Source of the DNA: a virus
Lineage: Duplodnaviria; Heunggongvirae; Uroviricota; Caudoviricetes
Length of the DNA: 22,731 nt
Strand: one strand, 5' to 3'
Virus record (IMG/VR): IMGVR_UViG_2585427766_000007
Positions 7,121-22,428 of this stretch are shown in pieces. The notes below the pieces were generated by a model. The model did not search any database. It was not told the DNA's origin and was given only the letters and a program-made list of their open reading frames with translations. Every line of letters begins with the position of its first letter. Positions within the stretch are counted from its first letter, which is position 1. A program made the position numbers and the translations under genes.

Positions 7121-7144
7121 CGCAAAGTCTCCGCAATTACACGC

Positions 7145-7837: not shown

Positions 7838-7847
7838 TGCCGCCTCC

Positions 7848-8083: not shown

Positions 8084-8203
8084 CTCAGTTACGCTCCAGC
8101 ATTTCAATTTCCTGAGCATCAAGTACAAGCTCCAGCTTACGCATACCGGATGATGCTTGCTTGGCTCTCTGATCGGCTTTGCGCTCTGCTGCTGATTTAG
8201 TCA
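8084..8203 (-). CDS. Small hypothetical protein (39 aa), MTKSAAERKADQRAKQASSGMRKLELVLDAQEIEMLERN
   Basis: ATG preceded by AGGAAA 6 nt upstream; charged helical peptide; below the size cutoff of the ORF track; coding status unproven. Confidence 0.3.
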
Positions 8204-8497
8204 TTCTGCTTTTCCTGCATCAGGAGAAAGACAATCATGGCGGCGCGGATACTTCCGGTATCTTTTTACGCGATATTACCCTTCAATGACACATACAAGA
8301 AGACAGCCATCAGCAGGAATGAGTGAGGAATCGACAACCAGTAACGCTTAATTATCTATAGTGTCGTATTTGCTTCATAAAATATGGCGAATAACACAAA
8401 GCCCGCAGCAGCTCATTGTGCGGACTTTTCTTATACTTACTTCCTAGAGATAATTCTATGGAGGCATTAAATTAATGCTGTCATTGGTAATATCATA

Positions 8498-9112
8498 TTA
8501 TCTAAAAGTCTTTCCACTTTTAACGTCTAGATATATTCTGTTCGACAACGTCATTCCTCCGCAATATGTGAAATAGATGTTTTCACCCTTATTGCTTGAT
8601 GCCATCCACCCTCCAACTTCCTTAAAATCGCTCTCCGTGCAGACACCTTCACTTATTAACTTCCTAGCTGCCGAAGAAAACTCTTTTTTGTATATACGGT
8701 AGTCATCAGATCCTTTGATTAAGGTATCATTTCTGCTCGCATTTTCAGCAGGATCTGATGGCCTTTCACTGCTAAGATCACTAAGTTTAACCCATTCTGA
8801 AAACTTGCCATTAACGATTCCGTTTTTTCTTGTGCAGGATTTATTACCTTCTTTAATATATTCGCTTTCCCCTCCCACACATGAGGCTGAATATGGCTCA
8901 GTTATACGAACCCATTCACCTTTTTTTTCTAGAAAATCTACGCCTTCCCTGAAAAATAGTTTCCCAGCCACTCCACATTTACTTGAAGGGCAGGTATGTC
9001 TTTCCGTTCGATCAACAACAACCCAAAGTTTTGATTCATTTTTTGCCATTGCCGATGGTATTTGAGATGAGACAATTAACGTAAGCCCTAAAATTAGTGT
9101 TGATTTTTTCAT
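8498..9112 (-). CDS. Secreted/periplasmic Cys-containing protein of unknown function (204 aa), AT-rich cargo gene
   Basis: N-terminal signal peptide MKKSTLILGLTLIVSSQIPSAMA with AXA cleavage motif; AAGGAA Shine-Dalgarno; ~250-bp upstream intergenic region suggests its own promoter. Confidence 0.65.
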   Translation of the reverse strand: MKKSTLILGLTLIVSSQIPSAMAKNESKLWVVVDRTERHTCPSSKCGVAGKLFFREGVDFLEKKGEWVRITEPYSASCVGGESEYIKEGNKSCTRKNGIVNGKFSEWVKLSDLSSERPSDPAENASRNDTLIKGSDDYRIYKKEFSSAARKLISEGVCTESDFKEVGGWMASSNKGENIYFTYCGGMTLSNRIYLDVKSGKTFR

Positions 9113-9362
9113 TGTAATTTCCTTTTACTTTTTACAAAGCATTTAATCATGACTGATTATCTCTAAGCGTAGTAACAGCCTTGTGCGAAACATGTTACCA
9201 AATCGCCATTTCAGTGTATCCACAGTTAGGCTGCCACTTCAAGGATTCCTAGTTACATGGTACGTAAGCGTAATATCCCGTTGGTTGGCAGGTAATAACT
9301 CTGATCAATTCTCCCTTGTCTTTTGCTCTTACGTATGCAAATCTTGTACACTCAACCTAGGC

Positions 9363-9665
9363 TTACAGTTCAGCAATACGCTTACTTCCATCCGAGATAA
9401 CACCTTCGTAATATTCACGCTGCTCGTTGAGTTTTGATTTTGCTGCTTCCAGCTCAACGCGCAGCTTTCCTACCGTTAGCGCAATTTCCTCGTTCTCCTG
9501 GTCGCGGCGTTTGATGTATTGCTGGTTTCTTTCCCGCTCATCCAGCAGTTCCAGCACAATCGATGGTGTTACCAATTCATGGAAAAGGTCTGCGTCAAAT
9601 CCCCAGTCGTCATGCATTGCCTGCTCTGCCGCTTCACGCAGTGCCTGAGAGTTAATTTCGCTCAC
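9363..9665 (-). CDS. Coiled-coil protein in the lambda ea22 position (100 aa), possibly a shortened Ea22 homolog
   Basis: Acidic, heptad-rich sequence (ELEAAKSKLNEQREYYEG); start overlaps the orf73 stop; sits where ea22 lies in lambda; identity from recall is uncertain. Confidence 0.45.
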   Translation of the reverse strand: MSEINSQALREAAEQAMHDDWGFDADLFHELVTPSIVLELLDERERNQQYIKRRDQENEEIALTVGKLRVELEAAKSKLNEQREYYEGVISDGSKRIAEL

Positions 9666-9883
9666 TTCGAACCTCTCTGTTTACTGATAAGCTCCAGATC
9701 TTCCTGGCAACTTGCACAAGTCCGACAACCCTGAACGACCAGGCGTCTTCGTTCATCTATCGGATCGCCACACTCACAACAATGAGTGGCAGATATAGCC
9801 TGGTGGTTCAGGCGGCGCATTTTTATTGCTGTGTTGCGCTGTAATTCTTCAATTTCTGATGCTGAATCAATGATGTCTGCCAT
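9662..9883 (-). CDS. TraR/DksA-type C4 zinc-finger protein (73 aa), lambda orf73-like
   Basis: CCECGDPIDERRRLVVQGCRTCASCQ gives a CxxC...CxxC zinc ribbon typical of TraR/DksA; position matches lambda orf73. Confidence 0.7.
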   Translation of the reverse strand: MADIIDSASEIEELQRNTAIKMRRLNHQAISATHCCECGDPIDERRRLVVQGCRTCASCQEDLELISKQRGSK

Positions 9884-9937
9884 CTTCCATTAATCCCTGA
9901 ATTGTTGGTTAATACGCTTGAGGGTGAATGCGAATAA

Positions 9938-9959
9938 TAAAAAAGGAGCCTGTAGCTCC
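9938..9959 (-). terminator. Rho-independent terminator candidate within the pL operon
   Basis: Minus strand reads GGAGC-TACAG-GCTCC followed by TTTTTTTATT. Confidence 0.45.
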
Positions 9960-9981
9960 CTGATGATTTTGCTTTTCATGT

Positions 9982-10197
9982 TCATCGTTCCTTAAAGACG
10001 CCGTTTAACATGCCGATTGCCAGGCTTAAATGAGTCGGTGTGAATCCCATCAGCGTTACCGTTTCGCGGTGCTTCTTCAGTACGCTACGGCAAATGTCAT
10101 CGACGTTTTTATCCGGAAACTGCTGTCTGGCTTTTTTGATTTCAGAATTAGCCTGACGGGCAATGCTGCGAAGGGCGTTTTCCTGCTGAGGTGTCAT
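9982..10197 (-). CDS. Lambda orf61-like small protein; start uncertain (ATG 10197 gives 71 aa, ATG 10263 gives 93 aa)
   Basis: ORF in the lambda orf61 position between orf63 and orf73; no strong Shine-Dalgarno at either start. Confidence 0.5.
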   Translation of the reverse strand: MTPQQENALRSIARQANSEIKKARQQFPDKNVDDICRSVLKKHRETVTLMGFTPTHLSLAIGMLNGVFKER

Positions 10198-10273
10198 TGA
10201 ACAAGTCCCATGTCGGCAAGCATAAGCACACAGAATATGAAGCCCGCTGCCAGAAAAATGCATTCAGTGGTTG

Positions 10274-10465
10274 TCATACCTGGTCTCTCTCATCTGCTTC
10301 TGCTTTCGCCACCATCATTTCCAGCTTTTGTGAAAGGGATGCGGCTAACGTGTGAAATTCTTCGTCTGTTTCTACTGGTATTGGCACAAACCTGACTCCA
10401 ATTTGAGCGAGGCTATGTGCCATCTCGATACTCGTTCTTAACTCAACGGGAGATGCTTTGTGCAT
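10274..10465 (-). CDS. Lambda orf63-like small protein (63 aa)
   Basis: [36 protein letters not shown]... and the surrounding DNA match the lambda sequence just downstream of exo as recalled. Confidence 0.6.
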   Translation of the reverse strand: MHKASPVELRTSIEMAHSLAQIGVRFVPIPVETDEEFHTLAASLSQKLEMMVAKAEADERDQV

Positions 10466-10626
10466 ACAGCCCCTCGTTTATTATTTATCTCCTCAGCCAG
10501 CCGCTGGGCTTTCAGTGGATTTTGGATAACAGAAAGGCTGGGAAATACCCAGCCTCGCTTTGTAACGGAGTAGACGAAAGTGATCGCGCCTACCCGGATA
10601 TTATCGTGAGGATGCGTCATCGCCAT
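10438..10626 (-). CDS. Lambda orf60a-like small protein (62 aa)
   Basis: [29 protein letters not shown]... overlaps the exo stop exactly as in lambda (GCAATGGCGATGACGCATCCTCACGATAATATCCGGGTAGGCGC). Confidence 0.55.
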
Positions 10627-11297
10627 TGCTCCCCAAATACAAAACCAATTTCAGCCAGTGCCTCGTCCATTTTTTCGATGAACTCCGGCACCATCTCGTC
10701 AAAACTCGCCATGTACTTTTCATTCCGCTCAATCACGACATAATGCAGGCCTTCACGCTTCATGCGCGGGTCATAGTTGGCAAAGTACCAGGCATCTTTT
10801 CGCGTCACCCACATGCTGTACTGCACCTGGGCCATGTAAGCCGATTTTATTGCCTCGAAACCACCGAGCCGGAATTTCATGAAATCCCGGGAGGTAAACG
10901 GGCATTTCAGTTCAAGGCCGTTGCCGTCACTGCATAAACCATCGGGAGAGCAGGCGGTGCGCATATTTTCGTCGCGATAGATGATCGGGGATTCAGTAAT
11001 ATTCACGCCGGAAGTGAATTCAAACAGGGTTCTGGCGTCGTTCTCGTACTGTTTTCCCCAGGCCAGCGCCTTAGCATTAACTTCCGGAGCCACACCGGTG
11101 CAAACCTCAGCCAGCAGGGTGTGGAAGTAGGACATTTTCATGTCAGGCCACTTCTTTCCTGAGCGGGGCTTTGCTATCACGTTGTGAACTTCTGAAGCGG
11201 TGATGACGCCGAGCCGTAATTTGTGCCATGCATCATCCCCCTGTTCGACAGCTCTCACGTCGATCCCGGTACGCTGCAGGATAATGTCCGGTGTCAT
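10617..11297 (-). CDS. exo: Lambda exonuclease (Red alpha, 226 aa)
   Basis: [62 protein letters not shown]... matches lambda Exo. Confidence 0.95.
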
Positions 11298-12079
11298 GCT
11301 GCCACCTTCTGCTCAGTGGCTTTCTGTTTCAGGAATCCAAGAGCTTTCACTGCTTCGGCCTGTGTCAGTTCTGACGATGCGCGAATGTCGCGGCGAAATA
11401 TCTGGGAACAGAGCGGCAATAAGTCGTCATCCCATGTTTTATCCAGGGCGATCAGCAGAGTGTTAATCTCCTGCATGGTTTCATCGTTAACCGGAGTGAT
11501 GTCGCGTTCCGGCTGACGTTCTGCAGTGTATGCGGTATTTTCGACAATGCGCTCGGCTTCATCCTTGTCATAGATACCAGCAAATCCGAAGGCGAGACGG
11601 GCACACTGAATCATGGCTTTATGCCGTAACATCCGTTTGGGATGCGACTGCCACGGCCCCGTGATTTCTCTGCCTTCGCGGGTTTTGAATGGTTCGCGGC
11701 GGCATTCATCCATCCACTCGGTAACGCAGATCGGATGATTACGGTCCTTGCGGTAAATCCGGCATGTACATGATTCATTGTCCTGCTCAAAGTCCATGCC
11801 ATCAAACTGCTGGTTTTCATTGATGATACGGGACCAGCCATCAACGCCCACCACCGGAACGATGCCGTTCTGCTTGTCAGGGAAGGCGTAAATTTCTTTC
11901 GTCCACGGATTAAGGCCGTACTGGTTGGCGACGATCAACAATGCGATGAACTGCGCATCGCTGGCATCACCTTTAAATGCCGTCTGGCGAAGAGTGGTGA
12001 TCAGTTCCTGTGGGTCGACAGAATCCATGCCGACACGTTCAGCCAGCTTCCCAGCCAGCGTTGCGAGTGCTGTACTCAT
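11294..12079 (-). CDS. bet: Bet single-strand annealing protein (Red beta, 261 aa)
   Basis: [66 protein letters not shown]... matches lambda Bet. Confidence 0.95.
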
Positions 12080-12084
12080 CCGTT

Positions 12085-12381
12085 TTATACCTCTGAATCA
12101 ATATCAACCTGGTGGTGAGCAATGGTTTCAACCATGTACCGGATGTGTTCTGCCATGCGCTCCTGAAACTCAACATCGTCATCAAACGCACGGGTAATGG
12201 CTTTTTTGCTGGCCCCGTGGCGTTGCAAATGATCGATGCATAGCGATTCAAACAGGTGCTGGGGCAGGCTTTTTTCCATGTCGTCTGCCAGTTCTGCCTC
12301 TTTCTCTTCACGGGCGAGCTGCTGGTAGTGACGCGCCCAGCTCTGAGCCTCAAGACGATCCTGAATGTAATAAGCGTTCAT
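12085..12381 (-). CDS. gam: Gam RecBCD inhibitor (short form, 98 aa)
   Basis: [37 protein letters not shown]... matches lambda Gam; AGGAG Shine-Dalgarno; DNA upstream of ~12463 diverges from the recalled lambda sequence. Confidence 0.9.
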
Positions 12382-12457
12382 GGCTGAACTCCTGAAAATG
12401 GCTGTGAAAATATCGCCCGCGAAATGCCAGGCTGATTAGGAAAACAGGAAAGGGGGG

Positions 12458-12868
12458 TTAGTGATTCAGGCCGTTACCGCGTCCGTCGAGAAAAACTTCC
12501 ACGAGCAAATCACTGGTATAAGTGCGCTCGATGCCGCGATGCAGATAAAGCCGTCCGCGTAAATTAGCTGATGCAGTCCAGGTACCATCTTTGTGTTTGA
12601 CCAGCATTCCTGGCATGACCGCGCCGCGATTAACGGTCTGTGTTCCGTAATGTTGATGAACCATAAAAACTCCTGCCCGTAAGCTGGGCTGCTGAACATA
12701 TAGAGACTTCTGCGCATATTCAGGCGGTGGATGGCCGCCGGTTGTCATAACTAAGCCGCCTCGTTGAAGCGACTGAGGTATGAAATGTTGAGTTAATTTC
12801 AGCTGGTCACACCGACGTTCACGCGTCCGTTTCACCCCTCGCACTCCCCGAAGCCTGCTGAAATTCAA
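12458..12868 (-). CDS. Hypothetical ORF between pL and gam; candidate N-type antiterminator (arginine-rich N-terminus); start codon unresolved
   Basis: N-terminal VKRTRERR resembles the arginine-rich motif of lambdoid N proteins; position right after the putative pL; only TTG/GTG starts near the N-terminus; a strong internal CAGGAG-ATG at 12664 would give a 68-aa product. Confidence 0.3.
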   Translation of the reverse strand: MNFSRLRGVRGVKRTRERRCDQLKLTQHFIPQSLQRGGLVMTTGGHPPPEYAQKSLYVQQPSLRAGVFMVHQHYGTQTVNRGAVMPGMLVKHKDGTWTASANLRGRLYLHRGIERTYTSDLLVEVFLDGRGNGLNH

Positions 12869-12904
12869 ACTGCGGATCTAAGCGGTCATCGCAACGGTGA
12901 ATCA

Positions 12905-13040
12905 GGTAGTTGCCGTATCGTTGTGTTGTTGCGATGAACTTATTTAAAACTATAGTTGTTTTATCGTCAACAACAAAAGTTGTTTTATTGGTTGTTTTAG
13001 ATATAACTGGTTGTATTTAGGATGGATTTATTTTGTGACT
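12905..13040 (-). promoter_or_regulatory. Candidate oL/pL region
   Basis: Minus strand has TTGACG (12965-12970), a 17-nt spacer, then TTAAAT (12942-12947); overlapped by the palindrome AACAACAAAAGTTGTT (12969-12984) and further GTTGTT repeats. Confidence 0.4.
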
Positions 13041-13111
13041 TGAATCGCATAGCGATAACTGAAGCGAGGTTATGGTGGTTTTTTTAACGGTGTGTGTGAT
13101 GAGGGGAGGGC

Positions 13112-13138
13112 AAAAGAAAACCCGGCACGGTGACCGGG
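13112..13138 (-). terminator. Rho-independent terminator candidate downstream of the cI-like repressor
   Basis: Minus strand reads CCCGG-TCACCGTG-CCGGG followed by TTTTCTTTT, ~120 bp after the repressor stop. Confidence 0.5.
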
Positions 13139-13259
13139 ATTCTTACGCCGTTAGGTAAAGATATTATTGCGGTGGCTTAATATTACTACCTAGAGCAAAG
13201 ATAGGAATTAGTTCTTTACTGAATGAGCACAATGTCCAGTTGATAATTTTTAATTGGTA

Positions 13260-13949
13260 CTACCCATGCTTCCTATATGTCTGCGGCATGCTCCCAATAA
13301 CCTTACCGAAGATGAACACCCGGTTCATCTCGTCTTTCTCGATCGGGTCCCACGGTGAGTAGCTTTTGTTATCAGAGATGACCAGCAGCTTATCCTTCAT
13401 CATTTGCAGGCGCTTTACATGGGCTGTGTCGTCGTACAGAAACGCATAGATACCATCACCGTCGAAAGATTTAACTGTGATATCAACGAACAGCAGATCA
13501 CCTGGTTCGATCGTTCCTGACATGCTGTCACCACGCACGTTAATGATGCGGATATTTTCCGCCTTCCTACCATCGAACATGTGACGAGCATCGTCAAACG
13601 AGTACTCAACCGAGCGTAGAACTTCTACAAACTCACGGTTGATGACTCCCGGCCCAGCACTGACTTCTATATCAAGAACGTCAATCTTGAAGTATTTGGA
13701 ATGGCTGACAGTTGATTGTATTGGTTGCACTGTACTGTCTGACATATTTCCAACGCCAGAAGATAACCATTCTGCGCGCACACCCAAAGCGTTCGCGATC
13801 TCCACGATTTTAGTTGTTTGATTAGCTTTCCCTGTTTCGATTTTCTGAATAGCAGCCTGGCTAACCCCGACCAAATCCCCAAGCGCCTTTTGTGTAAGGC
13901 CTCGCGCTAATCTGGCTTCTTTAAGTCTTTCTGAGAGTGTTGTTTTCAT
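13260..13949 (-). CDS. cI: CI-type prophage repressor (HTH plus S24 LexA-like autopeptidase), non-lambda immunity; about 229 aa from ATG 13949
   Basis: N-terminal HTH (LTQKALGDLVGVSQAAIQKIETGK); Ala-Gly cleavage site; C-terminal GDSM serine and KRL lysine motifs; no Shine-Dalgarno before the ATG, so possibly a leaderless transcript as for lambda pRM. Confidence 0.85.
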   Translation of the reverse strand: MKTTLSERLKEARLARGLTQKALGDLVGVSQAAIQKIETGKANQTTKIVEIANALGVRAEWLSSGVGNMSDSTVQPIQSTVSHSKYFKIDVLDIEVSAGPGVINREFVEVLRSVEYSFDDARHMFDGRKAENIRIINVRGDSMSGTIEPGDLLFVDITVKSFDGDGIYAFLYDDTAHVKRLQMMKDKLLVISDNKSYSPWDPIEKDEMNRVFIFGKVIGSMPQTYRKHG

Positions 13950-14053
13950 AGTCCAAATGTACAACCAAGGTTTTATTCCATCAAACGAAAATGGTTGTTG
14001 ACTAAAAACAACCATAGTTTTAATCTTGATTCAAATTAACCACGGAGGTTGTT
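13950..14053. promoter_or_regulatory. Candidate oR with divergent pRM/pR promoters
   Basis: Inverted repeat ATGGTTGTT-N7-AACAACCAT (13991-14015) overlaps a TTGACT -35 hexamer (13998-14003) for rightward transcription; TTGATG-N17-TACATT on the minus strand could serve the repressor. Confidence 0.45.
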
Positions 14054-14284
14054 ATGAACCCAGCTATCAAAACAGCGATCAATATCGTTGGTTCACAAAA
14101 GAAACTGGGCGCTGCTTGCGAAGTTTCACAGCAGGCCGTCTATAAGTGGCTTCACAACAAAGCAAAGGTATCCCCTGAACATGTCGGCAGCATTGTTACG
14201 GCTACTGGTGGAGTAGTGAAGGCATACCAGATTCGCCCGGATCTTCCGAAGTTGTTTCCACACACCGAAAAGAACGCAGCTTAA
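14054..14284 (+). CDS. cro: Cro-like HTH regulator (76 aa), Cro/YdaS type
   Basis: Divergent from the repressor; GGAGG Shine-Dalgarno; HTH-like GSQKKLGAACEVSQQAVYKW and C-terminal ATGG-x-V...RPDLP pattern recalled from YdaS/Cro-like proteins. Confidence 0.7.
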   Translation: MNPAIKTAINIVGSQKKLGAACEVSQQAVYKWLHNKAKVSPEHVGSIVTATGGVVKAYQIRPDLPKLFPHTEKNAA

Positions 14285-14296
14285 ATTTCCATTTCA

Positions 14297-14309
14297 CGCT
14301 CTTTAACAA
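14297..14309 (+). promoter_or_regulatory. boxA-like antitermination element (candidate nutR component)
   Basis: CGCTCTTTAACAA is identical to the rrn-type boxA consensus as recalled; 13 bp downstream of cro, where nutR sits in lambda; no boxB hairpin found by eye. Confidence 0.4.
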
Positions 14310-14353
14310 TAAGCAATCAACTTAACAGTCAATTCAAACTAAAGGAGTCAATT

Positions 14354-14893
14354 ATGCAACCACTTCCATACCAACAGACTAGCGGATTTAGCCCGACTGC
14401 GGTGATAAATCGTTCTCAAACAAAACAGGTGCCAGGCCACGAAAAAATCCGTGATGCCGTCCGCGCCTGGTCGGCTGTAGATAATCAGGATGTCGTTGCC
14501 ACACTCATTGTGAATGAGTATCGGGAGCAGGGCGGCGGCACCATCGATTTCCCTGATGATGTCAGCCGTGCACGCCAGAAGCTGTTCCGCTTCCTCGATA
14601 ACAAATTCGATTCTGAAAAATACCGAAATAACGTGCGTGAACTGACCCCGGCAATTCTGGCGGTACTACCGCTGGAATATCGCGGTTACCTGGTTGAGCA
14701 GGATAGCTTCATGGCCAGGTTGGCTGAAATGGAAAAGGAACTCAGTGAGGCAAAACAGGCTGTCATTCTCAACGCACCACGCCACCAGAAACTGAAGGAA
14801 ATTAGTGAAGGTATTGTATCGATGTTTCGTGTGGACCCAGATCTGGCTGGTCCATTGATGGCGATGGTTACTACCATGCTGGGGGCGATATGA
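14354..14893 (+). CDS. CII-like early regulator (179 aa), CP-933/YdaT-type, putative
   Basis: Occupies the cII position after cro; AAGGAG Shine-Dalgarno; family assignment is from recall of prophage CII-like proteins and is uncertain. Confidence 0.45.
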   Translation: MQPLPYQQTSGFSPTAVINRSQTKQVPGHEKIRDAVRAWSAVDNQDVVATLIVNEYREQGGGTIDFPDDVSRARQKLFRFLDNKFDSEKYRNNVRELTPAILAVLPLEYRGYLVEQDSFMARLAEMEKELSEAKQAVILNAPRHQKLKEISEGIVSMFRVDPDLAGPLMAMVTTMLGAI

Positions 14894-14979
14894 CAGGTTC
14901 AGAAATGGCGAAAGCCGGTCTGCTGGAACAGAACCGACTTTCAGGTGCAAATCGTAACACACTCATTGCGGGAGGAATT

Positions 14980-15909
14980 ATGGCAAACACTGCTGAGATA
15001 TTCAATTTTCCAGTGCCGGATGCGGCACAAAAGGAGCCGCGCGTGGCAGATCTCGATGATGGTTATACGCGCATTGCAAATGAGTTGCTGGAAGCTGTGA
15101 TGCTGGCCGGATTAACACAGCACCAGCTTCTGGTCTTCCTGGCTGTCATGCGCAAAACATATGGCTTTAATAAAAAACTGGATTGGGTGAGCAACGAGCA
15201 ACTGTCCGGATTGACCGGGATATTACCGCACAAGTGTTCTGCTGCAAAAAGTGTTCTGGTAAAGCGTGGGATTTTGATTCAGAGCGGGCGGAATATCGGT
15301 ATTAATAATGTGGTCAGTGAATGGTCAACATTACCCGAATCAGGTAAGAAAAATAAAGTTTACCTGAAAGAGGTAAATTTACCTGAATCAGGTAAGAAAA
15401 GTTTACCCAAATCAGGTAAAGGCGTTTACCCGAATCAGGTAAACACAAAAGACAAACTAACAAAAGACAATATAAAACCTTTTTCGTCCGAGAATTCTGG
15501 CGAATCCTCTGACCAACCAGAAAACGATCTTCCTGTGGTGAAACCAGATGCTGCAATTCAGAGCGGCAGCAAGTGGGGGACAGCAGAAGACCTGACCGCC
15601 GCAGAGTGGATGTTTGACATGGTGAAGACCATCGCACCATCAGCCAGAAAACCGAATTTTGCAGGGTGGGCTAACGATATCCGCCTGATGCGTGAACGTG
15701 ACGGACGTAACCACCGCGACATGTGCGTGCTTTTCCGCTGGGCATGCCAGGACAACTTCTGGTCCGGTAACGTGCTAAGTCCGGCCAAACTCCGCGACAA
15801 GTGGACCCAACTCGAAATCAACCGTAACAAGCAACAGGCAGGCATGATAGCCAGCAAACCAAAACTCGACCTGACAAACACTGACTGGATTTACGGGGTG
15901 GATTTATGA
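14980..15909 (+). CDS. O: Replication initiator O (chimeric: non-lambda N-terminal iteron-binding domain, lambda-type C-terminal P-interaction domain)
   Basis: ATG 14980 with GGAGG Shine-Dalgarno; C-terminal ~110 aa (SGSKWGTAEDLTAAEWMFDMVKTIAPSARKPNFAGWANDIRLMRERDGRNHRDMCVLFRW...) matches lambda O; N-terminal part differs; internal iterons. Confidence 0.85.
   Translation: MANTAEIFNFPVPDAAQKEPRVADLDDGYTRIANELLEAVMLAGLTQHQLLVFLAVMRKTYGFNKKLDWVSNEQLSGLTGILPHKCSAAKSVLVKRGILIQSGRNIGINNVVSEWSTLPESGKKNKVYLKEVNLPESGKKSLPKSGKGVYPNQVNTKDKLTKDNIKPFSSENSGESSDQPENDLPVVKPDAAIQSGSKWGTAEDLTAAEWMFDMVKTIAPSARKPNFAGWANDIRLMRERDGRNHRDMCVLFRWACQDNFWSGNVLSPAKLRDKWTQLEINRNKQQAGMIASKPKLDLTNTDWIYGVDL
15331..15442 (+). 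repeat. Replication origin iterons inside O: five copies of TTACC(C/T)-N5-GGTAA, followed by an A-rich stretch
   Basis: Copies at 15331, 15360, 15379, 15403 and 15426, each itself palindromic; A-rich CACAAAAGACAAACTAACAAAAGACAATATAAAAC follows, as at lambda ori. Confidence 0.7.
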
Positions 15910-16607
15910 AAAACATCGCCGCACAGATGGTTAACTTTGACCGTGAGCAGATGCGTCGGATCGCCAACAACATGCCGGAACAGTACGACGAAAAGCCGCA
16001 GGTACAGCAGGTAGCGCAGATCATCAACGGTGTGTTCAGCCAGTTACTGGCAACTTTCCCGGCGAGCCTGGCTAACCGTGACCAGAATGAACTGAACGAA
16101 ATCCGCCGCCAGTGGGTGCTGGCTTTTCGGGAAAACGGGATCACCACAATGGAACAGGTTAACGCTGGAATGCGCGTAGCCCGTCGGCAGAATCGACCAT
16201 TCCTGCCATCACCCGGGCAGTTTGTCGCCTGGTGCCGGGAAGAAGCATCCGTTACCGCCGGGCTGCCAAACGCCAGCGAGCTGGTTGATATGGTTTACGA
16301 GTATTGCCGGAAGCGCGGGCTGTATCCGGATGCAGAGTCTTATCCGTGGAAATCAAACGCGCACTACTGGCTGGTTACCAACCTGTATCAGAACATGCGG
16401 GCCAATGCGTTGACTGACGCGGAATTACGGCGCAAGGCTGCCGATGAACTGTCCTGTATGACCGCACGAATTAACCGTGGTGAGGCTATACCTGAACCAG
16501 TAAAACAACTTCCTGTCATGGGCGGTAGACCTCTAAATCGTGCACAGGCTCTGGCGAAGATCGCAGAAATCAAAGCTAAGTTTGGGCTGAAAGGAGCAAG
16601 GGTATGA
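15906..16607 (+). CDS. P: Replication protein P (DnaB helicase loader, 233 aa)
   Basis: MKNIAAQMVNFDREQMRRIANNMPEQYDEKPQVQQVAQIINGVFSQLL... matches lambda P; start overlaps the O stop. Confidence 0.95.
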   Translation: MKNIAAQMVNFDREQMRRIANNMPEQYDEKPQVQQVAQIINGVFSQLLATFPASLANRDQNELNEIRRQWVLAFRENGITTMEQVNAGMRVARRQNRPFLPSPGQFVAWCREEASVTAGLPNASELVDMVYEYCRKRGLYPDAESYPWKSNAHYWLVTNLYQNMRANALTDAELRRKAADELSCMTARINRGEAIPEPVKQLPVMGGRPLNRAQALAKIAEIKAKFGLKGARV

Positions 16608-16906
16608 CGGGCAAAGAGGCAATTATTCATTACCTGGGGACTCATAAGAAATTCTGTGCGCAGGACGTTGCCGCGGTAACAGGCGCAACGGTAACCAGCA
16701 TAAATCAGGCTGCGGCTAAAATGGCACGGGCAGGTCTTCTGGCTATCGAAGGTAAGGTCTGGCGAACGGTGTATTACCGGTTTGCTACCAGAGAAGAACG
16801 GGAAGGAAAGGTGAGCACGAATCTGATTTTTAAGGAGTGTCGCCAGAGTGCCGCGATGAAACGGGTATTGAGGGTATATAAAAGAACATCAATGGGTACA
16901 CAATGA
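16604..16906 (+). CDS. ren: Ren protein (Rex exclusion-relief, about 100 aa)
   Basis: MTGKEAIIHYLGTH...TGATVTSINQAAAKMARAGLL... matches lambda Ren as recalled; start overlaps the P stop. Confidence 0.8.
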   Translation: MTGKEAIIHYLGTHKKFCAQDVAAVTGATVTSINQAAAKMARAGLLAIEGKVWRTVYYRFATREEREGKVSTNLIFKECRQSAAMKRVLRVYKRTSMGTQ

Positions 16907-16923
16907 TGAAACAGGTGAGTTGA

Positions 16924-16958
16924 GTTCAAACTGTAGTACAATTCTCTCCAGTTTGAAC
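16924..16958 (+). promoter_or_regulatory. Perfect 10-bp inverted repeat GTTCAAACTG-N15-CAGTTTGAAC just upstream of emrE
   Basis: Arms at 16924-16933 and 16949-16958 are exact reverse complements; lies between the ren stop and the emrE start. Confidence 0.3.
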
Positions 16959-16973
16959 AGGAAAGAATATTCT

Positions 16974-17306
16974 ATGAACCCTTATATTTATCTTGGTGGT
17001 GCAATACTTGCAGAGGTCATTGGTACAACCTTAATGAAGTTTTCAGAAGGTTTTACACGGTTATGGCCATCTGTTGGTACAATTATTTGTTATTGTGCAT
17101 CATTCTGGTTATTAGCTCAGACGCTGGCTTATATTCCTACAGGGATTGCTTATGCTATCTGGTCAGGAGTCGGTATTGTCCTGATTAGCTTACTGTCATG
17201 GGGACTTTTCGGCCAACGGCTGGACCTGCCAGCCATTATAGGCATGATGTTGATTTGTGTCGGTGTGTTGGTTATTAATTTATTGTCACGAAGCACACCA
17301 CATTAA
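16974..17306 (+). CDS. emrE: EmrE small multidrug resistance (SMR) efflux protein (110 aa)
   Basis: MNPYIYLGGAILAEVIGTTLMKFSEGFTRLWPSVGTIICYCASFWLLAQTLAYIPTGIAYAIWSGVGIVL... near-identical to E. coli EmrE as recalled; ORF-track start at 16920 is an upstream extension. Confidence 0.95.
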   Translation: MNPYIYLGGAILAEVIGTTLMKFSEGFTRLWPSVGTIICYCASFWLLAQTLAYIPTGIAYAIWSGVGIVLISLLSWGLFGQRLDLPAIIGMMLICVGVLVINLLSRSTPH

Positions 17307-17336
17307 AAATAATTTGTTTCTAAACGACTAAAATAT

Positions 17337-17376
17337 GGAGGCTCTTATATTTATATGAGCCTCGTTTTATGCTTTT
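17337..17376 (+). terminator. Rho-independent terminator after emrE
   Basis: GAGGCTC-N12-GAGCCTC hairpin followed by GTTTTATGCTTTTT. Confidence 0.6.
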
Positions 17377-17561
17377 TGTTAATGTCTTTATTTTTTTATG
17401 TATTCTTTTGTGCTTTCAAGATTATGGCGTAAGAAAATTGCAATACGATTATTGTTGTATATTCAAGATAATGTGACCTTAATTGTCTTTTTAAATAAAA
17501 ATTAAACAAAATTATATCCCACCACTAAGGTTTATAAAAGCATACGTTAGCAGGTGTCACC

Positions 17562-19088
17562 ATGAAAAAAGCCATAGCATATATGCGATTTTCATCACCA
17601 GGTCAGATGTCTGGCGACTCATTAAACCGACAGAGAAGACTTATTGCTGAATGGTTAAAGGTAAATAGTGATTATTATCTTGATACCATAACATATGAAG
17701 ATTTAGGATTAAGTGCATTCAAAGGAAAGCATGCACAATCAGGAGCTTTTTCGGAATTTTTAGATGCTATAGAGCATGGTTATATATTGCCAGGAACTAC
17801 ATTGTTAGTTGAAAGTCTGGACAGACTTTCAAGAGAAAAAGTCGGTGAAGCGATTGAACGTCTGAAATTGATTTTGAATCACGGTATTGATGTTATAACT
17901 CTTTGCGACAATACAGTCTATAATATTGACTCTTTGAATGAGCCATATTCATTAATAAAAGCCATACTTATAGCACAAAGGGCAAATGAAGAAAGCGAGA
18001 TAAAGTCAAGTCGGGTTAAATTATCATGGAAGAAAAAACGGCAGGATGCACTGGAATCAGGTACGATTATGACGGCGTCTTGTCCGAGATGGCTCTCCTT
18101 AGATGACAAAAGAACGGCTTTTGTTCCAGACCCCGACAGGGTGAAAACTATTGAGCTAATTTTTAAACTCAGGATGGAAAGGCGCTCATTGAATGCAATA
18201 GCCAAGTATTTAAATGATCATGCTGTAAAGAATTTCTCAGGAAAAGAAAGTGCATGGGGACCTTCTGTAATTGAAAAATTATTAGCGAATAAAGCTCTGA
18301 TAGGTATATGCGTACCTTCATATCGTGCAAGAGGTAAAGGAATAAGTGAAATCGCTGGCTATTATCCCAGAGTCATATCAGATGATTTGTTTTACGCTGT
18401 ACAGGAAATTCGGTTGGCACCTTTTGGTATTAGCAATAGTAGCAAAAATCCTATGTTGATAAATCTACTTCGAACAGTTATGAAGTGCGAGGCTTGTGGT
18501 AATACCATGATTGTTCATGCGGTATCTAGAAGTTTGCATGGCTATTATGTTTGTCCGATGAGAAGACTGCATCGATGTGACAGGCCATCAATAAAGAGAG
18601 ATTTGGTTGATTATAATATCATTAATGAGTTGCTTTTTAATTGTAGTAAAATCCAACCAGTTGAAAACAAGAAAGATGCTAATGAAACTTTAGAGTTGAA
18701 AATTATTGAGCTCCAGATGAAAATTAATAATTTAATTGCTGCATTATCTGTTGCGCCTGAAGTTACCGCTATAGCAGAAAAAATCAGAGTATTAGATAAG
18801 GAATTACGAAGGGCTTCTGTATCATTAAAAACTTTGAAGAGTAAAGCGGTGAGTTCACTTGGTGATTTTCATGCTATTGACTTAACCAGTAAAAATGGGC
18901 GAGAGCTATGTCGTACACTTGCCTATAAAACATTCGAAAAAATCATAATCAATACAGATAATAAAACCTGTGATATCTATTTTATGAATGGCATTGTTTT
19001 TAAACACTATCCTTTAATGAAAACAATATCCGCCCAGCAGGCGATAAGTACTCTCAAATATATGGTTGATGGTGAGGTTTATTTTTGA
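17562..19088 (+). CDS. ybcK: Large serine recombinase (resolvase-type N-terminal catalytic domain plus recombinase and zinc-ribbon domains), YbcK-like, 508 aa
   Basis: N-terminus MKKAIAYMRFSSPGQMSGDSLNRQRRLI has the resolvase catalytic-serine motif context; Cys cluster CEACGN...CPMRRLHRCDRP; AT-rich; follows emrE as in DLP12. Confidence 0.85.
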   Translation: MKKAIAYMRFSSPGQMSGDSLNRQRRLIAEWLKVNSDYYLDTITYEDLGLSAFKGKHAQSGAFSEFLDAIEHGYILPGTTLLVESLDRLSREKVGEAIERLKLILNHGIDVITLCDNTVYNIDSLNEPYSLIKAILIAQRANEESEIKSSRVKLSWKKKRQDALESGTIMTASCPRWLSLDDKRTAFVPDPDRVKTIELIFKLRMERRSLNAIAKYLNDHAVKNFSGKESAWGPSVIEKLLANKALIGICVPSYRARGKGISEIAGYYPRVISDDLFYAVQEIRLAPFGISNSSKNPMLINLLRTVMKCEACGNTMIVHAVSRSLHGYYVCPMRRLHRCDRPSIKRDLVDYNIINELLFNCSKIQPVENKKDANETLELKIIELQMKINNLIAALSVAPEVTAIAEKIRVLDKELRRASVSLKTLKSKAVSSLGDFHAIDLTSKNGRELCRTLAYKTFEKIIINTDNKTCDIYFMNGIVFKHYPLMKTISAQQAISTLKYMVDGEVYF

Positions 19089-19199
19089 GTAATAATCACT
19101 TTTTCAACCGTGCTATAGTAAGAAAGTTAGGTAAGTACATTAAAATTATCTATCCTGAACGAAGCGTCCTGAGCTATGGTTTTACTATAGAGACTGCCA

Positions 19200-19523
19200 A
19201 TGGATGCTGGCGTTCTCGTTCTAGCAGTTCAACAATACCCAATCACAAAACAATTCACTGATAACGAACTTTGCACACTCGCCTGGTTATGGCGAGCAGG
19301 GAATGTGATGTTAATTACCTACCAGAACGTTACTCCTCTTCTTCAGGTTGCGGAGCATCGTGAAGCTGGTCGCTTCACTTCTATCGAGCAAGAATATCCC
19401 CAGATACTCAATAAGGCACAGGCAATCCTTGCCAGAGAAACGGCACATGTAAAATTCCGGCCGTGGCAGGATGATAAGTGGAGTCGAGTTTTGCCGCATT
19501 TACGTTCGGATCGATTACAGTAG
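19200..19523 (+). CDS. Hypothetical ORF (107 aa from ATG 19200, or 71 aa from ATG 19305); coding status doubtful
   Basis: Open frame only; weak ribosome-binding sites; no recognisable motif. Confidence 0.25.
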   Translation: MDAGVLVLAVQQYPITKQFTDNELCTLAWLWRAGNVMLITYQNVTPLLQVAEHREAGRFTSIEQEYPQILNKAQAILARETAHVKFRPWQDDKWSRVLPHLRSDRLQ

Positions 19524-19984
19524 ATTCCAATTAACAATGAGAAACACATAGCCACCCCGTGGTATTGAAACCATATAATGTTGGATTTGAAAACAGATCT
19601 TTTTCCATGTATTAATAACTACATCCCCGCGAGTGATTCAAAAAGGAGGGCCCAATTTTGTCCGAGTTTTTGTATTCCCCCGCATGCCGCTGCGGAGCAC
19701 TACATCTGAGTGTCTGACTAGGGGATAAAATTAGACTGGATAGTGAGAAGAAAGTGGCGTGCTAGGCTGTGCCGAGTGCTACCAGTACACCCTGGGGGTG
19801 TGCAGCTTTCGCCGAGACTGTAGTGGGTATCGGTTAATGCACGAAAAACCGAGAGGTCAGACAACCAATTTGCCGTAGGATTGTTTCCGGTGCGATACCG
19901 GTGTACTAACTGAAAGCAATGCGAAAAAGCATAAACTCGGTCCTTCAGTCGCCCTACACACTATTTACTAAGAAGGGCTAAAGC

Positions 19985-20341
19985 ATGGATACAATTATCA
20001 CATGGATGGGAGATCGTCTGTTGGGGTGGATAACAAACAAATCCGATCTGCGGCAGAGGGCAATCACTGGATTAACTCCTGCGATTTATTCAACAATTTT
20101 ATATACTGAAAAATTAAAACGTGGTGAGCCTAATAACCCAAACGAAGAAGAAAAACTTTATAGGCTTTGGTATGAAGCGTCTTCCCAAGTCGTAGACTTT
20201 GATCGAGAGCTGGCTAAAAGATGTTTAGATAAATCAGAATATTGGCTTCATTCTGAATTATATAGCCCTGAGAAAGTTGGAGAGCTAAACATTTCTTTGG
20301 TTGGTATGAAGGCAACGCTTGAAGGAATAAAGCACAATTAA
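19985..20341 (+). CDS. Hypothetical AT-rich orphan protein (118 aa)
   Basis: ATG with AAGAAGGG upstream; no recognisable motif; occupies the slot where K-12 DLP12 carries ybcL-ybcM. Confidence 0.55.
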   Translation: MDTIITWMGDRLLGWITNKSDLRQRAITGLTPAIYSTILYTEKLKRGEPNNPNEEEKLYRLWYEASSQVVDFDRELAKRCLDKSEYWLHSELYSPEKVGELNISLVGMKATLEGIKHN

Positions 20342-20430
20342 AACCTTTGATTTGCGATAATCAACTCGCCATAATCATGTCATCGGAGCCTGAACAACTC
20401 CGGTGACTTCTGCGCTAAACGGGGACGTTT

Positions 20431-20532
20431 ATGCGCACACACAATCCAAACTCTCTTCTCCCTCCACAGATGCAGAAATGCACCTGCGATATATTGTATC
20501 CAGCGTTTGACCTCTGCGGAGGTGAAGCGTGA
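20431..20532 (+). CDS. ylcH: Small protein YlcH-like (33 aa)
   Basis: [33 protein letters not shown]; GGGGA Shine-Dalgarno; stop overlaps the ybcN start; position as in DLP12. Confidence 0.5.
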
Positions 20533-20984
20533 ATCTCCCACAAGATGGCATCAAATTACATCGCGGTAACTTCACCGCTATCGGTCGGCAGATCCAGCCT
20601 TATCTGGAGGAGGGCAAATGCTTTCGCATGGTGCTTAAACCGTGGCGTGAGAAACGCAGTCTTTCCCAGAATGCACTCAGCCACATGTGGTACAGCGAAA
20701 TCAGTGAATACCTCATCAGCAGGGGTAAAACGTTCGCTACTCCAGCTTGGGTAAAAGATGCTCTCAAACACACATATCTCGGTTATGAAACCAAAGACCT
20801 GGTTGATGTTGTAACCGGTGATATCACCACTATCCAGTCGTTACGCCATACCTCCGATCTTGATACCGGAGAGATGTATGTCTTCCTGTGTAAGGTTGAA
20901 GCCTGGGCGGTGAATATTGGCTGCCACCTGACTATTCCGCAGAGCTGCGAGTTCCAGCTGCTCCGCGACAAGCAGGAGGCGTAA
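20529..20984 (+). CDS. ybcN: NinB-family recombination protein, YbcN-like (151 aa, GTG start)
   Basis: GGAGG Shine-Dalgarno; internal [16 protein letters not shown] resembles the NinB motif; followed by ninE as in lambdoid nin regions. Confidence 0.8.
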
Positions 20985-21154
20985 TGGCTACACCGCTTAT
21001 TCGTGTCATGAACGGACACATCTACAGAGTACCAGATCGTCGTAAGCGTAAACCGGAGCTGAAGCCTTCCGAAATACCAACACTGCTCGGATATACCGCC
21101 AGCCTGGTTGATAAAAAATGGTTGCGACTGGCAGCAAGGAGGAATCATGGCTGA
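20984..21154 (+). CDS. ninE: NinE-family small protein (56 aa)
   Basis: [56 protein letters not shown]; start overlaps the ybcN stop; below the ORF-track size cutoff, translated by hand. Confidence 0.7.
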   Translation: MATPLIRVMNGHIYRVPDRRKRKPELKPSEIPTLLGYTASLVDKKWLRLAARRNHG

Positions 21155-21437
21155 TTTGAGAAAAGCAGCGCGTAGTCGGGAATGCCAGGTAAGAATCCCT
21201 GGCGTATGTAATGGCAACCCTGAAACGTCTGTACTGGCACATATCCGGCTGACTGGATTGTGCGGCACCGGTACCAAACCGCCAGACCTGATTGCCACCA
21301 TTGCATGTTCTGCCTGCCACGACGAAATCGACCGCCGCACACATTTTGTCGATGCTGCATATGCAAAAGAATGCGCGCTGGAAGGTATGGCGAGAACACA
21401 GGTTATCTGGCTGAAAGAGGGGGTTATTAAGGCGTGA
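21147..21437 (+). CDS. ybcO: YbcO-like protein (96 aa from ATG 21147), Cys-rich putative nuclease
   Basis: AGGAGG Shine-Dalgarno before [35 protein letters not shown]...; DLP12 gene order ninE-ybcO-rusA. Confidence 0.75.
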
Positions 21438-21796
21438 ATACCTACAGCATCACATTACCCTGGCCTCCGAGCAATAATCGCTATTACCGCCATAATCGCG
21501 GGCGCACGCACGTCAGCGCAGAGGGGCAGGCATACCGCGATAACGTCGCCCGAATCATTAAAAACGCAATGCTGGATATCGGCCTGGCTATGCCTGTGAA
21601 AATCCGCATTGAGTGCCACATGCCGGATCGCCGTCGCCGTGACCTGGATAATCTGCAAAAAGCCGCTTTTGACGCACTCACTAAAGCAGGTTTCTGGCTG
21701 GATGATGCTCAGGTCGTTGATTACCGCGTTGTGAAGATGCCTGTTACCAAAGGTGGGAGGCTGGAACTGACCATCACCGAAATGGGGAATGAATGA
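21434..21796 (+). CDS. rusA: RusA Holliday-junction resolvase (120 aa)
   Basis: [51 protein letters not shown]... matches E. coli RusA as recalled. Confidence 0.95.
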
Positions 21797-21933
21797 TGTT
21801 TGAGTTTTATATGGCAGAACGTCTTCGCCACCGCTGGGGGCGTCTGCGCTTATATCGTTTCCCCGGTTCTGTTTTGACCGATTACCGAATACTGAAGAAT
21901 TACGCCAAAACCCTGACAGGAGCAGGAGTATGA
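21793..21933 (+). CDS. ylcG: Small protein YlcG-like (46 aa)
   Basis: [46 protein letters not shown]; start overlaps the rusA stop; translated by hand. Confidence 0.6.
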
Positions 21934-22018
21934 AGTCAGAGATAACAATCAACTAATACTGTTTCGTTGATTTTTGCTTGTAATTGGCGTTCTGGTCTGA
22001 TTTTTGTGGAGTAAGTTG

Positions 22019-22402
22019 ATGCGTGATATTCAGATGGTTCTTGAGCGTTGGGGAGCGTGGGCGGCTAATAATCATGAAGATGTGACCTGGTCGTCCATTG
22101 CCGCCGGTTTTAAGGGATTAATTACTTCAAAAGTAAAATCTCGCCCGCAATGTTGTGACGATGACGCGATGATCATTTGCGGGTGCATGGCCCGTCTGAA
22201 AAAGAACAACAGCGATTTGCACGATTTATTAGTAGATTATTATGTAGTCGGTATGACATTCATGTCACTGGCAGGTAAGCATTGCTGCTCTGATGGTTAT
22301 ATCGGGAAAAGGTTACAGAAGGCTGAGGGCATAATTGAAGGGATGTTAATGGCATTAGATATCCGGTTAGAGATGGATATCGTTGTTAATAACTCTAATT
22401 AA
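22019..22402 (+). CDS. quuD: Late-gene antiterminator Q (QuuD-like, 127 aa from ATG 22019)
   Basis: [34 protein letters not shown]... with Cys cluster [12 protein letters not shown]; lies downstream of rusA/ylcG as in DLP12. Confidence 0.85.
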
Positions 22403-22428
22403 TACGCCAATTATTTACTAAAAGTTAT

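Follow-up and report, generated by a model that had tools for sequence, protein, structure and literature searches.

Known RNA-first systems and the locus under study

In type III toxin-antitoxin (TA) systems, a promoter, an RNA, an intrinsic terminator and a small protein gene follow each other on the same strand; such systems reside on mobile elements and in prophages, where they act by abortive infection. Short promoter-proximal RNAs that end at a terminator ahead of phage genes are also known from the early-right and late control path of lambdoid phages, namely lambda pR′-6S-tR′ and the HK022 put RNA with a size of approximately 70 nucleotides (nt). The element described here is a conserved structured RNA with a core of approximately 329 nt (positions 19623–19951, + strand), which is located in a DLP12-like lambdoid prophage. 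The analyzed stretch of DNA, the IMG/VR record IMGVR_UViG_2585427766_000007 with a length of 22,731 nt, is referred to as the window.

Structured RNAs without repeats that lie upstream of a defense protein and control it are described in the cited excerpts for AvcI/AvcD (PMC10511110) and, just upstream of a prophage/defense protein, for RCd22/AbiF of C. difficile (PMC12373285). For GOLLD, ROOL and OLE, complexes consisting of RNA only were reported in the cited excerpt of 10.1101/2024.12.08.627333. In its form, the RNA of the window most resembles such orphan ornate RNAs (ROOL, GOLLD). In its working layout it comes closest to the operons with a leading RNA, namely type III TA, RCd22/AbiF and AvcI/AvcD, and it is a member of none of these groups.

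With GOLLD, ROOL, OLE and raiA the RNA shares a long, highly structured and pseudoknotted form, an often phage-borne occurrence, the detection by covariation and the lack of a known job. In contrast to these, it shows no similarity in sequence or model in the Rfam scan, is smaller (approximately 330 nt) and occurs only in lambdoid phages of Enterobacterales. The gene order, including the terminator found in relatives, is the same as in ToxIN, CptIN and TenpIN, whereas a tandem-repeat array and a ToxN-type endoribonuclease are absent and a single pseudoknotted fold of approximately 330 nt precedes unrelated proteins. In type III systems, a terminator between the RNA and the protein gene sets their ratio; in the window a terminator is absent at this place, and relatives with other downstream open reading frames (ORFs) have one in four forms. 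RCd22/AbiF and AvcI/AvcD have the RNA-first layout in common with the locus, and one of the families downstream of the RNA is HEPN-like with an Rx4H motif. However, no abiF motif or Rfam match and no Abi_2 protein or deaminase was found, the RNA exceeds these RNAs considerably in size and is only loosely linked to any one protein.

Like the lambda late leader and put, the RNA is promoter-proximal and is associated with a terminator ahead of phage genes, but it is accessory cargo (approximately 3% of E. coli genomes) with a complex conserved fold and no known link to Q or N. The slot between an antirepressor remnant and the ylcH-type ORF/ybcN is identical to that of BstA and other moron cassettes, whereas the proteins are dissimilar to BstA and the main conserved product is the RNA. 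A conserved structured domain that precedes an ORF of the same orientation is also a feature of riboswitches and other cis-acting leaders.

As a tentative explanation, which we prefer over the alternatives discussed below, the element would be an autonomous RNA gene whose folded RNA is the functional product and which feeds a low downstream expression. It would serve an accessory function expressed in the lysogen, probably in phage-phage conflict.

Fold, covariation and strand of the RNA

The fold of the RNA core consists of 15 nested helices, to which two tertiary pairings of long range are added (alignments A3 and A7). Using RNAalifold, 81 pairs with clear compensatory changes were detected. 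In columns 254–294 of A3, the poorly supported RNAalifold helices were replaced by a covarying hairpin (columns 269–273/279–283, corresponding to 19887–19891/19897–19901), for which the pair closing the loop is A-U, U-A or C-G across the relatives. An earlier note on this DNA, made from the letters alone, had quoted this hairpin (CCGGTGCGATACCGG) and a second one (CACCCTGGGGGTG, 19789–19792/19796–19799) as possible signs of a structured RNA, and both were found to be real helices of the conserved fold.

The final model is based on 30 distinct sequences and contains 89 pairs in 17 helices. In total, 97.7% of the cells are paired, compared to 92.1% in shuffled alignments. Compensatory changes were found in 21 pairs, compared to 13.0 ± 1.3 in the shuffles, and none of 500 shuffles reached 21. 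Double changes were counted in 175 cells (66.5 in shuffles and 0–24 in controls with slid partners); since the sequences are related and represent approximately 10 lineages, such cell counts are higher than the number of changes that arose independently. According to the tool's own calibration, the pair-count measure has a false-positive rate of 0–1%. Four sequences outside the derivation of the model fit it as well. One of these, L164 from Citrobacter, keeps 81 of 85 pairs and shows 10 double changes.

A kissing loop of 6 base pairs (bp) was first found by a scan of all column pairs. Its first arm, CACUAC (19698–19703, +), is the hairpin loop of helix 19688–19696/19705–19712, and its second arm, GUAGUG (19820–19825, +), is the hairpin loop of helix 19811–19819/19826–19834. 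Here, 98.9% of the cells are paired, and 26 double-change cells were found compared to 7.9 in the shuffles (reached by 0 of 500). Four complementary versions could be identified, namely CACUAC/GUAGUG, CGCAAC/GUUGCG, CACCAC/GUGGUG and CAUCAC/GUGAUG, the last of which stems from L164. The second pseudoknot is less well supported. Its 5′ arm GUCUGACU (19712–19719, +) is complementary to the 3′ arm GGUCAGAC (19855–19862, +) and nearly invariant. In L164, one of its pairs is changed from C-G to U-A, and the same change disrupts a competing local hairpin.

On the + strand, the paired positions contain 305 G·U cells and 6 A·C cells, and pairing on the opposite strand would drop to 86%. The transcribed strand is thus the + strand. 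This asymmetry also bears on an element that acts at the DNA level, for example a recombination site for the serine recombinase YbcK, an origin or a single-strand initiation signal. Such an element is in line with the many inverted repeats and with the position of ybcK, which is only 0.5 kb away in the window. However, the stretch is also found in phages without a nearby ybcK, the tolerance of G·U but not of A·C indicates one transcribed strand, and the long-range and loop-loop covariation as well as the flanking promoter and strand-specific terminator signals point to RNA. A recombination site, which the earlier note had listed, therefore fits poorly, and a DNA-level element is extremely unlikely. 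The structured non-coding RNA listed beside it is strongly supported by covariation, strand asymmetry, the promoter-like element and the terminators.

A perfect Shine-Dalgarno-like sequence, AAGGAGG (19643–19649, +), is located in an internal loop and is kept in nearly all lineages. It could be a site for ribosome docking or for the binding of anti-Shine-Dalgarno sequences. The motif sits 8 nt before TTG 19658, which opens a frame of 19 codons that ends at 19717. As a coding sequence (CDS) this frame was rejected, since a stop or frameshift occurs in two lineages and the substitutions are mostly non-synonymous. A candidate trans target in the window, a 12-nt match between the RNA (19734–19745) and ybcN (20828–20839), was also rejected as a chance match, since it varies synonymously in relatives.

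Occurrence and conservation of the RNA family

The ORF-free stretch of 455 bp was found in 159 of 5,426 complete E. coli genomes (approximately 3%). At 78–83% identity, the core (approximately 19597–19951) is present in an additional E. coli prophage and in two Klebsiella phages, Kp4856-1 and Kp4862-1, where it precedes different ORFs. The non-coding stretch recurs at 72–83% identity across unrelated phage backgrounds. Five conserved-block patterns were searched in IMG/VR and resulted in overlapping sets of 48–65 loci, with a total number of approximately 70 distinct loci. After exact-block scans of IMG/VR and metagenomes, approximately 100 loci with 32 distinct sequences were obtained. Examples from Obesumbacterium, Enterobacter and Citrobacter were added via homologues of the downstream proteins.

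The RNA is hosted by lambdoid phages of E. coli, Klebsiella, Citrobacter, Enterobacter and Obesumbacterium. It was found in 4 of 50,697 phage records, whereas plasmids gave no match and the species-representative genome collection gave four chance matches and no RNA locus. As far as can be seen from these searches, the element is real, rare and confined to lambdoid phages of Enterobacterales. In one IMG/VR locus (L050, approximately 3400–3450), the RNA ends after approximately column 309 and is joined to unrelated sequence, which represents a natural loss of the 3′ domain.

In close relatives, the RNA is 98.5–99.1% identical, compared to 83% for the upstream sequence, 92% for the 5′ half of the ORF, where frameshifts and a deletion occur, and 94–95% for the ylcH-type ORF/ybcN. 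It is the best-conserved piece of its neighborhood. The guanine-cytosine (GC) content of the core is 50.8% and thus higher than that of 19524–19622 (32%), of the downstream ORF of 118 amino acids (aa; 38%) and of ybcK (36%). The stretch is therefore richer in GC than its flanks, as had been stated before, but the value for 19778–19840 was determined to be 57% and not approximately 60%.

The covariance-model search recommended for this region was performed with Rfam 15 on 18900–20700 and gave no family match at E ≤ 10. For two other lineages, the Rfam scan yielded sub-threshold matches only, which were located on the 3′ end/terminator tail or were far under the gathering scores. No tRNA or tmRNA was detected by ARAGORN. 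Tandem Repeats Finder reported no tandem repeat at a score of at least 30, which agrees with the earlier observation that a repeat array is lacking, and the sole direct repeat is a chance pair of 18-mers within an ORF. Full-text searching of the literature revealed no description of the RNA.

Coding potential of the stretch

Between 19556 and 19984, no ORF of 60 aa or more exists on either strand, in agreement with the first inspection. The largest ORFs have 43, 31 and 39 aa on the + strand and 48 and 34 aa on the − strand. The alignment of 343 columns contains almost no indels, and its stretches without variation reach 13 nt and extend over every codon position. The variable columns are distributed over the codon phases with 52/52/60 (p = 0.68), so that no 3-periodicity is present. 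Due to a 1-nt indel, identical invariant bases fall in different frames between lineages. No family of Pfam or PHROGs matches any frame of the stretch.

These results have to be compared with the assumption that a decayed protein gene, as also considered in the earlier note, or a gene on the minus strand explains the conservation. A minus-strand frame is indeed open for 110–124 codons in several lineages (108–124 in some relatives) and for 80 codons in the window. Nevertheless, the even spread over the codon phases, the frame shift across invariant nucleotides, the invariant runs spanning all codon positions and the missing family matches argue against a protein gene, as do the terminators and the G·U pairs, which are specific to the + strand. 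This explanation has next to no probability.

The frame of 39 codons from GTG 19759 (19759–19878), for which a CxxC…C…C spacing had been pointed out, exists, but its start, frame and cysteines are not conserved. It was rejected since the GTG is GCG in near-identical relatives, stops occur in several lineages and the cysteines are lost. In the annotation of phage Turner, two small hypothetical proteins are placed within the RNA (L008 3049–3180 and 3230–3349), which correspond to the frames of 43 and 39 aa. Both are almost certainly spurious.

Promoter, terminators and linker

A promoter-like element (19587–19615, +) was identified in front of the RNA on the basis of conserved hexamers. It consists of the −35 hexamer TTGAAA (19587–19592), a spacer of 17 nt and the −10 hexamer TATTAA (19610–19615), which follows a TG. 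The predicted start is at approximately 19622–19624. In all 24 distinct upstream sequences, a −35-like hexamer (TTGAAA, TTGAAT, TTGATA or TTGTAT) is followed after 17 nt by a −10-like hexamer (TTTAAT, TTAAAT or TATTAA) preceded by TG, whereas the spacer sequences are unrelated. The invariant sequence AUCCCCGCGAG starts 6–7 nt past the −10 hexamer. A simple scanner does not call this element because the second or sixth position of the −10 hexamer deviates.

An imperfect palindrome, AACCATATAATGTTGGATT (19569–19587, no strand assigned), abuts the −35 hexamer. Other lineages contain AACCATATGTTGTATGGTT or different inverted repeats at this position. In every lineage an inverted repeat abuts or overlaps the −35 hexamer, and its sequence is variable (AACCATA...TATGGTT, ATCGAAAGA...TCTTTCGAT, CCAC...GTGG). 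The palindrome is the lone match at 3 mismatches in the window, which is not significant (66 of 100 shuffles have at least one). Its recurrence at the same position across lineages, and only that, is suggestive, and the palindrome might serve as an operator or as a hairpin with insulating function.

Another palindrome, ATGGTTGTTGACTAAAAACAACCAT (13990–14015), is located between the S24 repressor and the cro-like gene of the immunity region and is likely an operator. The hexamer AACCAT/ATGGTT is common to this palindrome and the repeat at the RNA promoter, with opposite arrangement. The half-sites near the RNA promoter were considered as an operator because of their resemblance to the palindrome of the immunity region (ATGGTTGTT...AACAACCAT) and were rejected on the basis of the opposite orientation and spacing and the occurrence of the RNA in phages of other immunity types; no claim is made here.

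In the relatives, four unrelated intrinsic terminators consisting of a hairpin and a U-tract were found 12–20 nt past the conserved core. In most of them, the sequence from the promoter to its own terminator thus represents a free-standing RNA gene. In the window, no terminator was called in front of the 118-aa ORF, and it is missing in this lineage as well as in three other genera. The position of the terminator is taken by a linker hairpin (19951–19978, +), formed by GCCCU (19951–19955) and AGGGC (19974–19978) according to the sequence and fold of the 3′ tails. The hairpin takes in the likely ribosome-binding site of the 118-aa ORF, GAAGGG, and may control its translation.

The main rival of the autonomous RNA gene is a cis-acting sensor leader similar to a riboswitch or an attenuator. 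The RNA would respond to a cue, for example temperature, ribosome traffic, a tRNA, a protein or a metabolite, and would gate the terminator or the ribosome-binding site of a possibly toxic gene. This is consistent with the orientation of the RNA, which is always the same as that of an ORF starting so close to the terminator or linker (25–50 nt) that a promoter of its own would not fit in between, and with the hairpin over the likely Shine-Dalgarno sequence in the window. A constant RNA with variable downstream genes is also the pattern of a generic regulatory domain, and AAGGAGG with the short internal frame could couple translation to folding. However, no conserved antiterminator pairing was found by inspection of the 3′ tails, and the lone competitor for the 3′ arm of the terminator, UCGCC of CAGUCGCC, would itself give a terminator-like hairpin. 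In the lineage L058, the RNA is followed by a core nin gene, the ORF of which starts at an offset of 115 and thus a good deal further away than in the other lineages. Furthermore, the RNA is strongly constrained where the downstream ORF is broken, and the downstream genes give no pointer to a ligand. To our knowledge, almost all known bacterial cis-regulators are smaller than this RNA of approximately 330 nt with two pseudoknots. A sensor leader is possible, if rather doubtful.

Genes downstream of the RNA

The genes following the RNA differ between lineages. They were found to be the 118-aa ORF, a family of 176–183 aa that contains an Rx4H motif, a protein of 178 aa in which two helices are hydrophobic (transmembrane), a 177-aa ORF, a 95-aa ORF or the core DUF1367 gene. 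In most lineages the downstream gene starts 25–50 nt after the RNA, which leaves no space for a promoter. Only 66 aa of the ORF are left in the C21-type lineage, and the RNA is still 98.5–99.1% identical. Since the RNA persists beside a decayed ORF and precedes unrelated ORFs, we regard it as a gene in its own right, which seems to be selected for itself and not as the dedicated partner of any single protein.

The 118-aa ORF of the window (19985–20341, +) begins 33 nt after the RNA core. It was already described as AT-rich and without a recognizable motif, which is confirmed by a GC content of 38% and by the absence of matches in Pfam, NCBIfam and PADLOC. The protein is a predicted four-helix bundle and matches PHROG 12412 (E = 5e-71), a family of unknown function. 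Sequence and fold searches against the PDB were without significant result, and the same holds for the fold search with the AlphaFold2 model, which has a predicted local distance difference test (pLDDT) score of 79.9. The family comprises 21 clusters among 5.8 billion proteins, and all named sources are Enterobacterales. Homologues are 51–79% identical and share 44 invariant columns.

Homologues were found in three other genera. Those with at least 69% identity, from these genera and other phage backbones, all carry the RNA approximately 30 nt upstream, and a 51%-identical homologue is located elsewhere in a phage, without the RNA. For both protein families examined, homologues of at least 67% identity are accompanied by the RNA and those of 51% identity are not. 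The second of these families, with a size of 176–183 aa, contains the invariant motif R-x-R-H-N-L-L-H (Rx4H, HEPN-like). For the remaining downstream ORFs, searches in Pfam, PHROGs, PADLOC, NCBIfam and the PDB sequence and fold libraries were uninformative.

The earlier note had named a type III TA system as one specific model. In a type III-like TA or abortive-infection pair, the 118-aa protein, or the HEPN-like or membrane protein of the relatives, would be a toxin neutralized by the RNA, and phage infection would lower the RNA and thereby release the toxin. The layout of promoter, RNA, leaky terminator and small protein is that of ToxIN, the slot is used by BstA and HEPN genes, and the Rx4H motif is invariant in one downstream family. 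A homologue of this family in Superficieibacter with 51% identity has a 90-aa ORF and a terminator replacing the RNA. RNA antitoxins without repeats exist, as described in the excerpts cited for AvcI/AvcD (PMC10511110) and RCd22/AbiF (PMC12373285).

Nevertheless, tandem repeats are absent, and the 118-aa protein has no match to ToxN, CptN, TenpN, Abi_2, HEPN or BstA. An Rx4-6H motif is absent from the invariant residues of its family, and HEPN chains were retrieved by Foldseek at E values of 0.66 or worse. Moreover, one nearly invariant RNA would need to neutralize unrelated proteins, or has no such protein downstream, distant homologues of the 118-aa and HEPN-like proteins occur without the RNA, and the RNA is kept beside a truncated ORF. 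The type III model is not supported and is improbable. The more general proposal of a module of an RNA and a small protein proved correct in that the RNA and the 118-aa ORF form one exchangeable cassette.

The exchangeable cassette and its slot

The window comprises the early-right part (replication to nin to Q) of the DLP12-like prophage. The gene order is S24 repressor, cro-like, YdaT, O, P, ren-like, emrE, ylcJ, ybcK, the studied segment, a 33-aa ylcH-type ORF, ybcN, ninE, ybcO, rusA, ylcG and quuD. The segment (19089–20430) between the serine recombinase gene ybcK (17562–19088) and the ylcH-type ORF (20431–20532) is tripartite, consisting of an antirepressor remnant, the structured RNA gene and the 118-aa ORF.

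Sibling prophages are 96% identical to the window up to 19505 and again from 20346, and the block between is replaced. Since this whole block (approximately 19506–20345) is swapped between 96%-identical flanks, the RNA and the ORF represent one exchangeable accessory cassette of approximately 835 bp (19514–20341, +). Its junctions to the siblings are at approximately 19505–19513 on the left and 20338–20346 on the right. The cassette is also carried by two isolated E. coli phages, Turner and IdasGreatGrand.

In E. coli WL164, the slot (L003 3134–4063, corresponding to 19506–20345 of the window) contains a BstA protein of 309 aa (PADLOC, E = 3.6e-121), which RefSeq labels only as hypothetical protein. 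In an O103 strain and another E. coli (L004 3121–3917 and L005 3963–4759), a HEPN-domain protein overlapping a 133-aa ORF was found in the slot. The HEPN protein matches Pfam with E = 3e-6 and the PADLOC candidate PDC-M28A, and both genes may form a HEPN toxin-antitoxin pair. In K-12 DLP12, the slot is occupied by ybcL and ybcM, which follow ybcK and precede the ylcH-type ORF, in agreement with the earlier note. BstA is described as a prophage abortive-infection protein in the cited excerpt of PMC8585504. With BstA and the HEPN pair, the slot upstream of the ylcH-type ORF/ybcN represents a defense hotspot of DLP12-like prophages.

The location of the RNA between the replication genes and ninB...Q in every backbone examined would also fit a processive antitermination element or a leader of the early-right operon in the style of HK022 put or lambda pR′-6S-tR′. 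The RNA would then modify RNA polymerase or act as a loading site for a factor, so that the nin terminators would be read through towards Q. In addition, a terminator follows the RNA, and no N gene is annotated in the window prophage. Against this, the RNA has its own promoter-like element and is far larger than the put RNA, and a boxA/boxB arrangement was not seen by sequence inspection. With an occurrence in approximately 3% of E. coli genomes and its replacement by BstA or HEPN genes in near-identical prophages, the RNA is no core regulatory part. Antitermination is very improbable.

Proposed function

For the preferred autonomous RNA gene, the following mechanism is proposed. A sigma-70-type promoter (approximately 19587–19615) would start an RNA of approximately 330 nt at approximately 19623, which would fold into a compact multi-helix body locked by the loop-loop kiss and the second pseudoknot. 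The folded RNA itself would be the working product, a particle rather than a message. In most relatives, the RNA would stop at its own intrinsic terminator. In the lineage of the window, the terminator would be replaced by a short hairpin over the ribosome-binding site, so that the transcript would continue into the 118-aa ORF and the RNA would double as a 5′ leader.

As the downstream gene is 25–50 nt away in most lineages and a promoter would not fit in between, its expression would be set, and kept low, by the RNA unit. This could be due to a leaky terminator in the relatives and to the direct fusion together with a partly masked ribosome-binding site in the window. Since the slot holds abortive-infection genes in siblings, the most likely role would be in the conflict between phages, as an accessory function expressed in the lysogen. 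The RNA family with its fold, strand and boundaries, the cassette and the slot are shown by the comparisons, and from these features we infer that the promoter is active, that both genes are co-transcribed, that the RNA acts in trans and that it may have a role in defense.

Several points weigh against this explanation. The promoter is a conserved consensus-like pattern without a scanner call, the 5′ end is a predicted one, and promoter activity is presumed from the hexamers. Action of the RNA in trans is likewise presumed, and in nearly every lineage an ORF follows within tens of nucleotides on the same strand, which is equally expected of a cis-acting leader. A defense role is suggested by position, i.e. 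guilt by location, and the 118-aa protein matches no defense model. The single-sequence folding energy is ordinary (z = −0.68), and neither strand differs from shuffles, so that this measure is uninformative. The relatedness of the sequences within approximately 10 lineages also has to be considered. Finally, the RNA belongs to a small and rare family, with members in 159 of 5,426 complete E. coli genomes and in 4 of 50,697 phage records and none on plasmids or in species-representative genomes.

According to a further explanation, which is unlikely, the RNA would represent a novel class of large phage RNAs with pseudoknots. It would work as an RNA particle in conflicts between phages or between phage and host, independent of the following proteins. 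The particle might be a decoy or sponge for a factor of the host or of a rival phage. It might also self-assemble via the kissing loops by pairing between molecules, as in ROOL/GOLLD. If true, this would be the first such RNA in the genetically tractable lambdoid phages of E. coli and Klebsiella; large bacterial RNAs with a complex fold and unknown function are few and mostly found in hard-to-handle organisms. Since the RNA is present in lambdoid phages of E. coli, Klebsiella, Citrobacter and Enterobacter, including two isolated coliphages, experiments are routine. If the RNA is an effector, sensor or gate for defense genes, an RNA-centered module would be added to prophage immunity. As the minimum outcome, an uncatalogued family is provided for RNA catalogues, and spurious calls of small ORFs as in phage Turner can be ended.

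Antirepressor remnant and flanking features

The ORF at 19200–19523 (+, 107 aa) was found to be present but not doubtful, as the earlier note had called it. It matches Pfam P22_AR_C (PF10548) with E = 1.1e-15 at residues 15–85 and PHROG 7640 with E = 9e-73, as well as the Ant PHROGs 245 and 377, and is annotated by RefSeq as a CDS (WP_001351655.1). A longer version of 202 aa is present in the O103 prophage, and the Ant profiles have 213–319 positions. With only 107 aa, the ORF lacks the N-terminal domain of the Bro-N/ANT/KilA type and is therefore an antirepressor fragment and no full member. It is best read as a remnant, comprising the P22AR C-terminal domain, of an antirepressor/Roi-type gene of the nin region, and it forms the conserved left flank of the slot.

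In the conserved right flank, a promoter-like site with the hexamers TTGATT-17-CATAAT (20347–20375, +) is located right of the cassette and before the ylcH-type ORF and ybcN. The same hexamers were found at the equivalent position of a Klebsiella phage (L006 4964–4992). As the site is common to E. coli and Klebsiella phages, the nin genes may own a promoter downstream of the slot.

The first part of the window (1–9696, as opposed to 9697–22428) contains ybhJ, ybhI, ybhH and ybhC, followed by an integrase. The prophage thus adjoins ybhC, the neighborhood of which we take to be the lambda attachment region. In strain MB56, the early region is 99.8% identical to that of the window, but the prophage adjoins tRNA-Thr/proA. 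The same module is therefore found in prophages at different integration sites.

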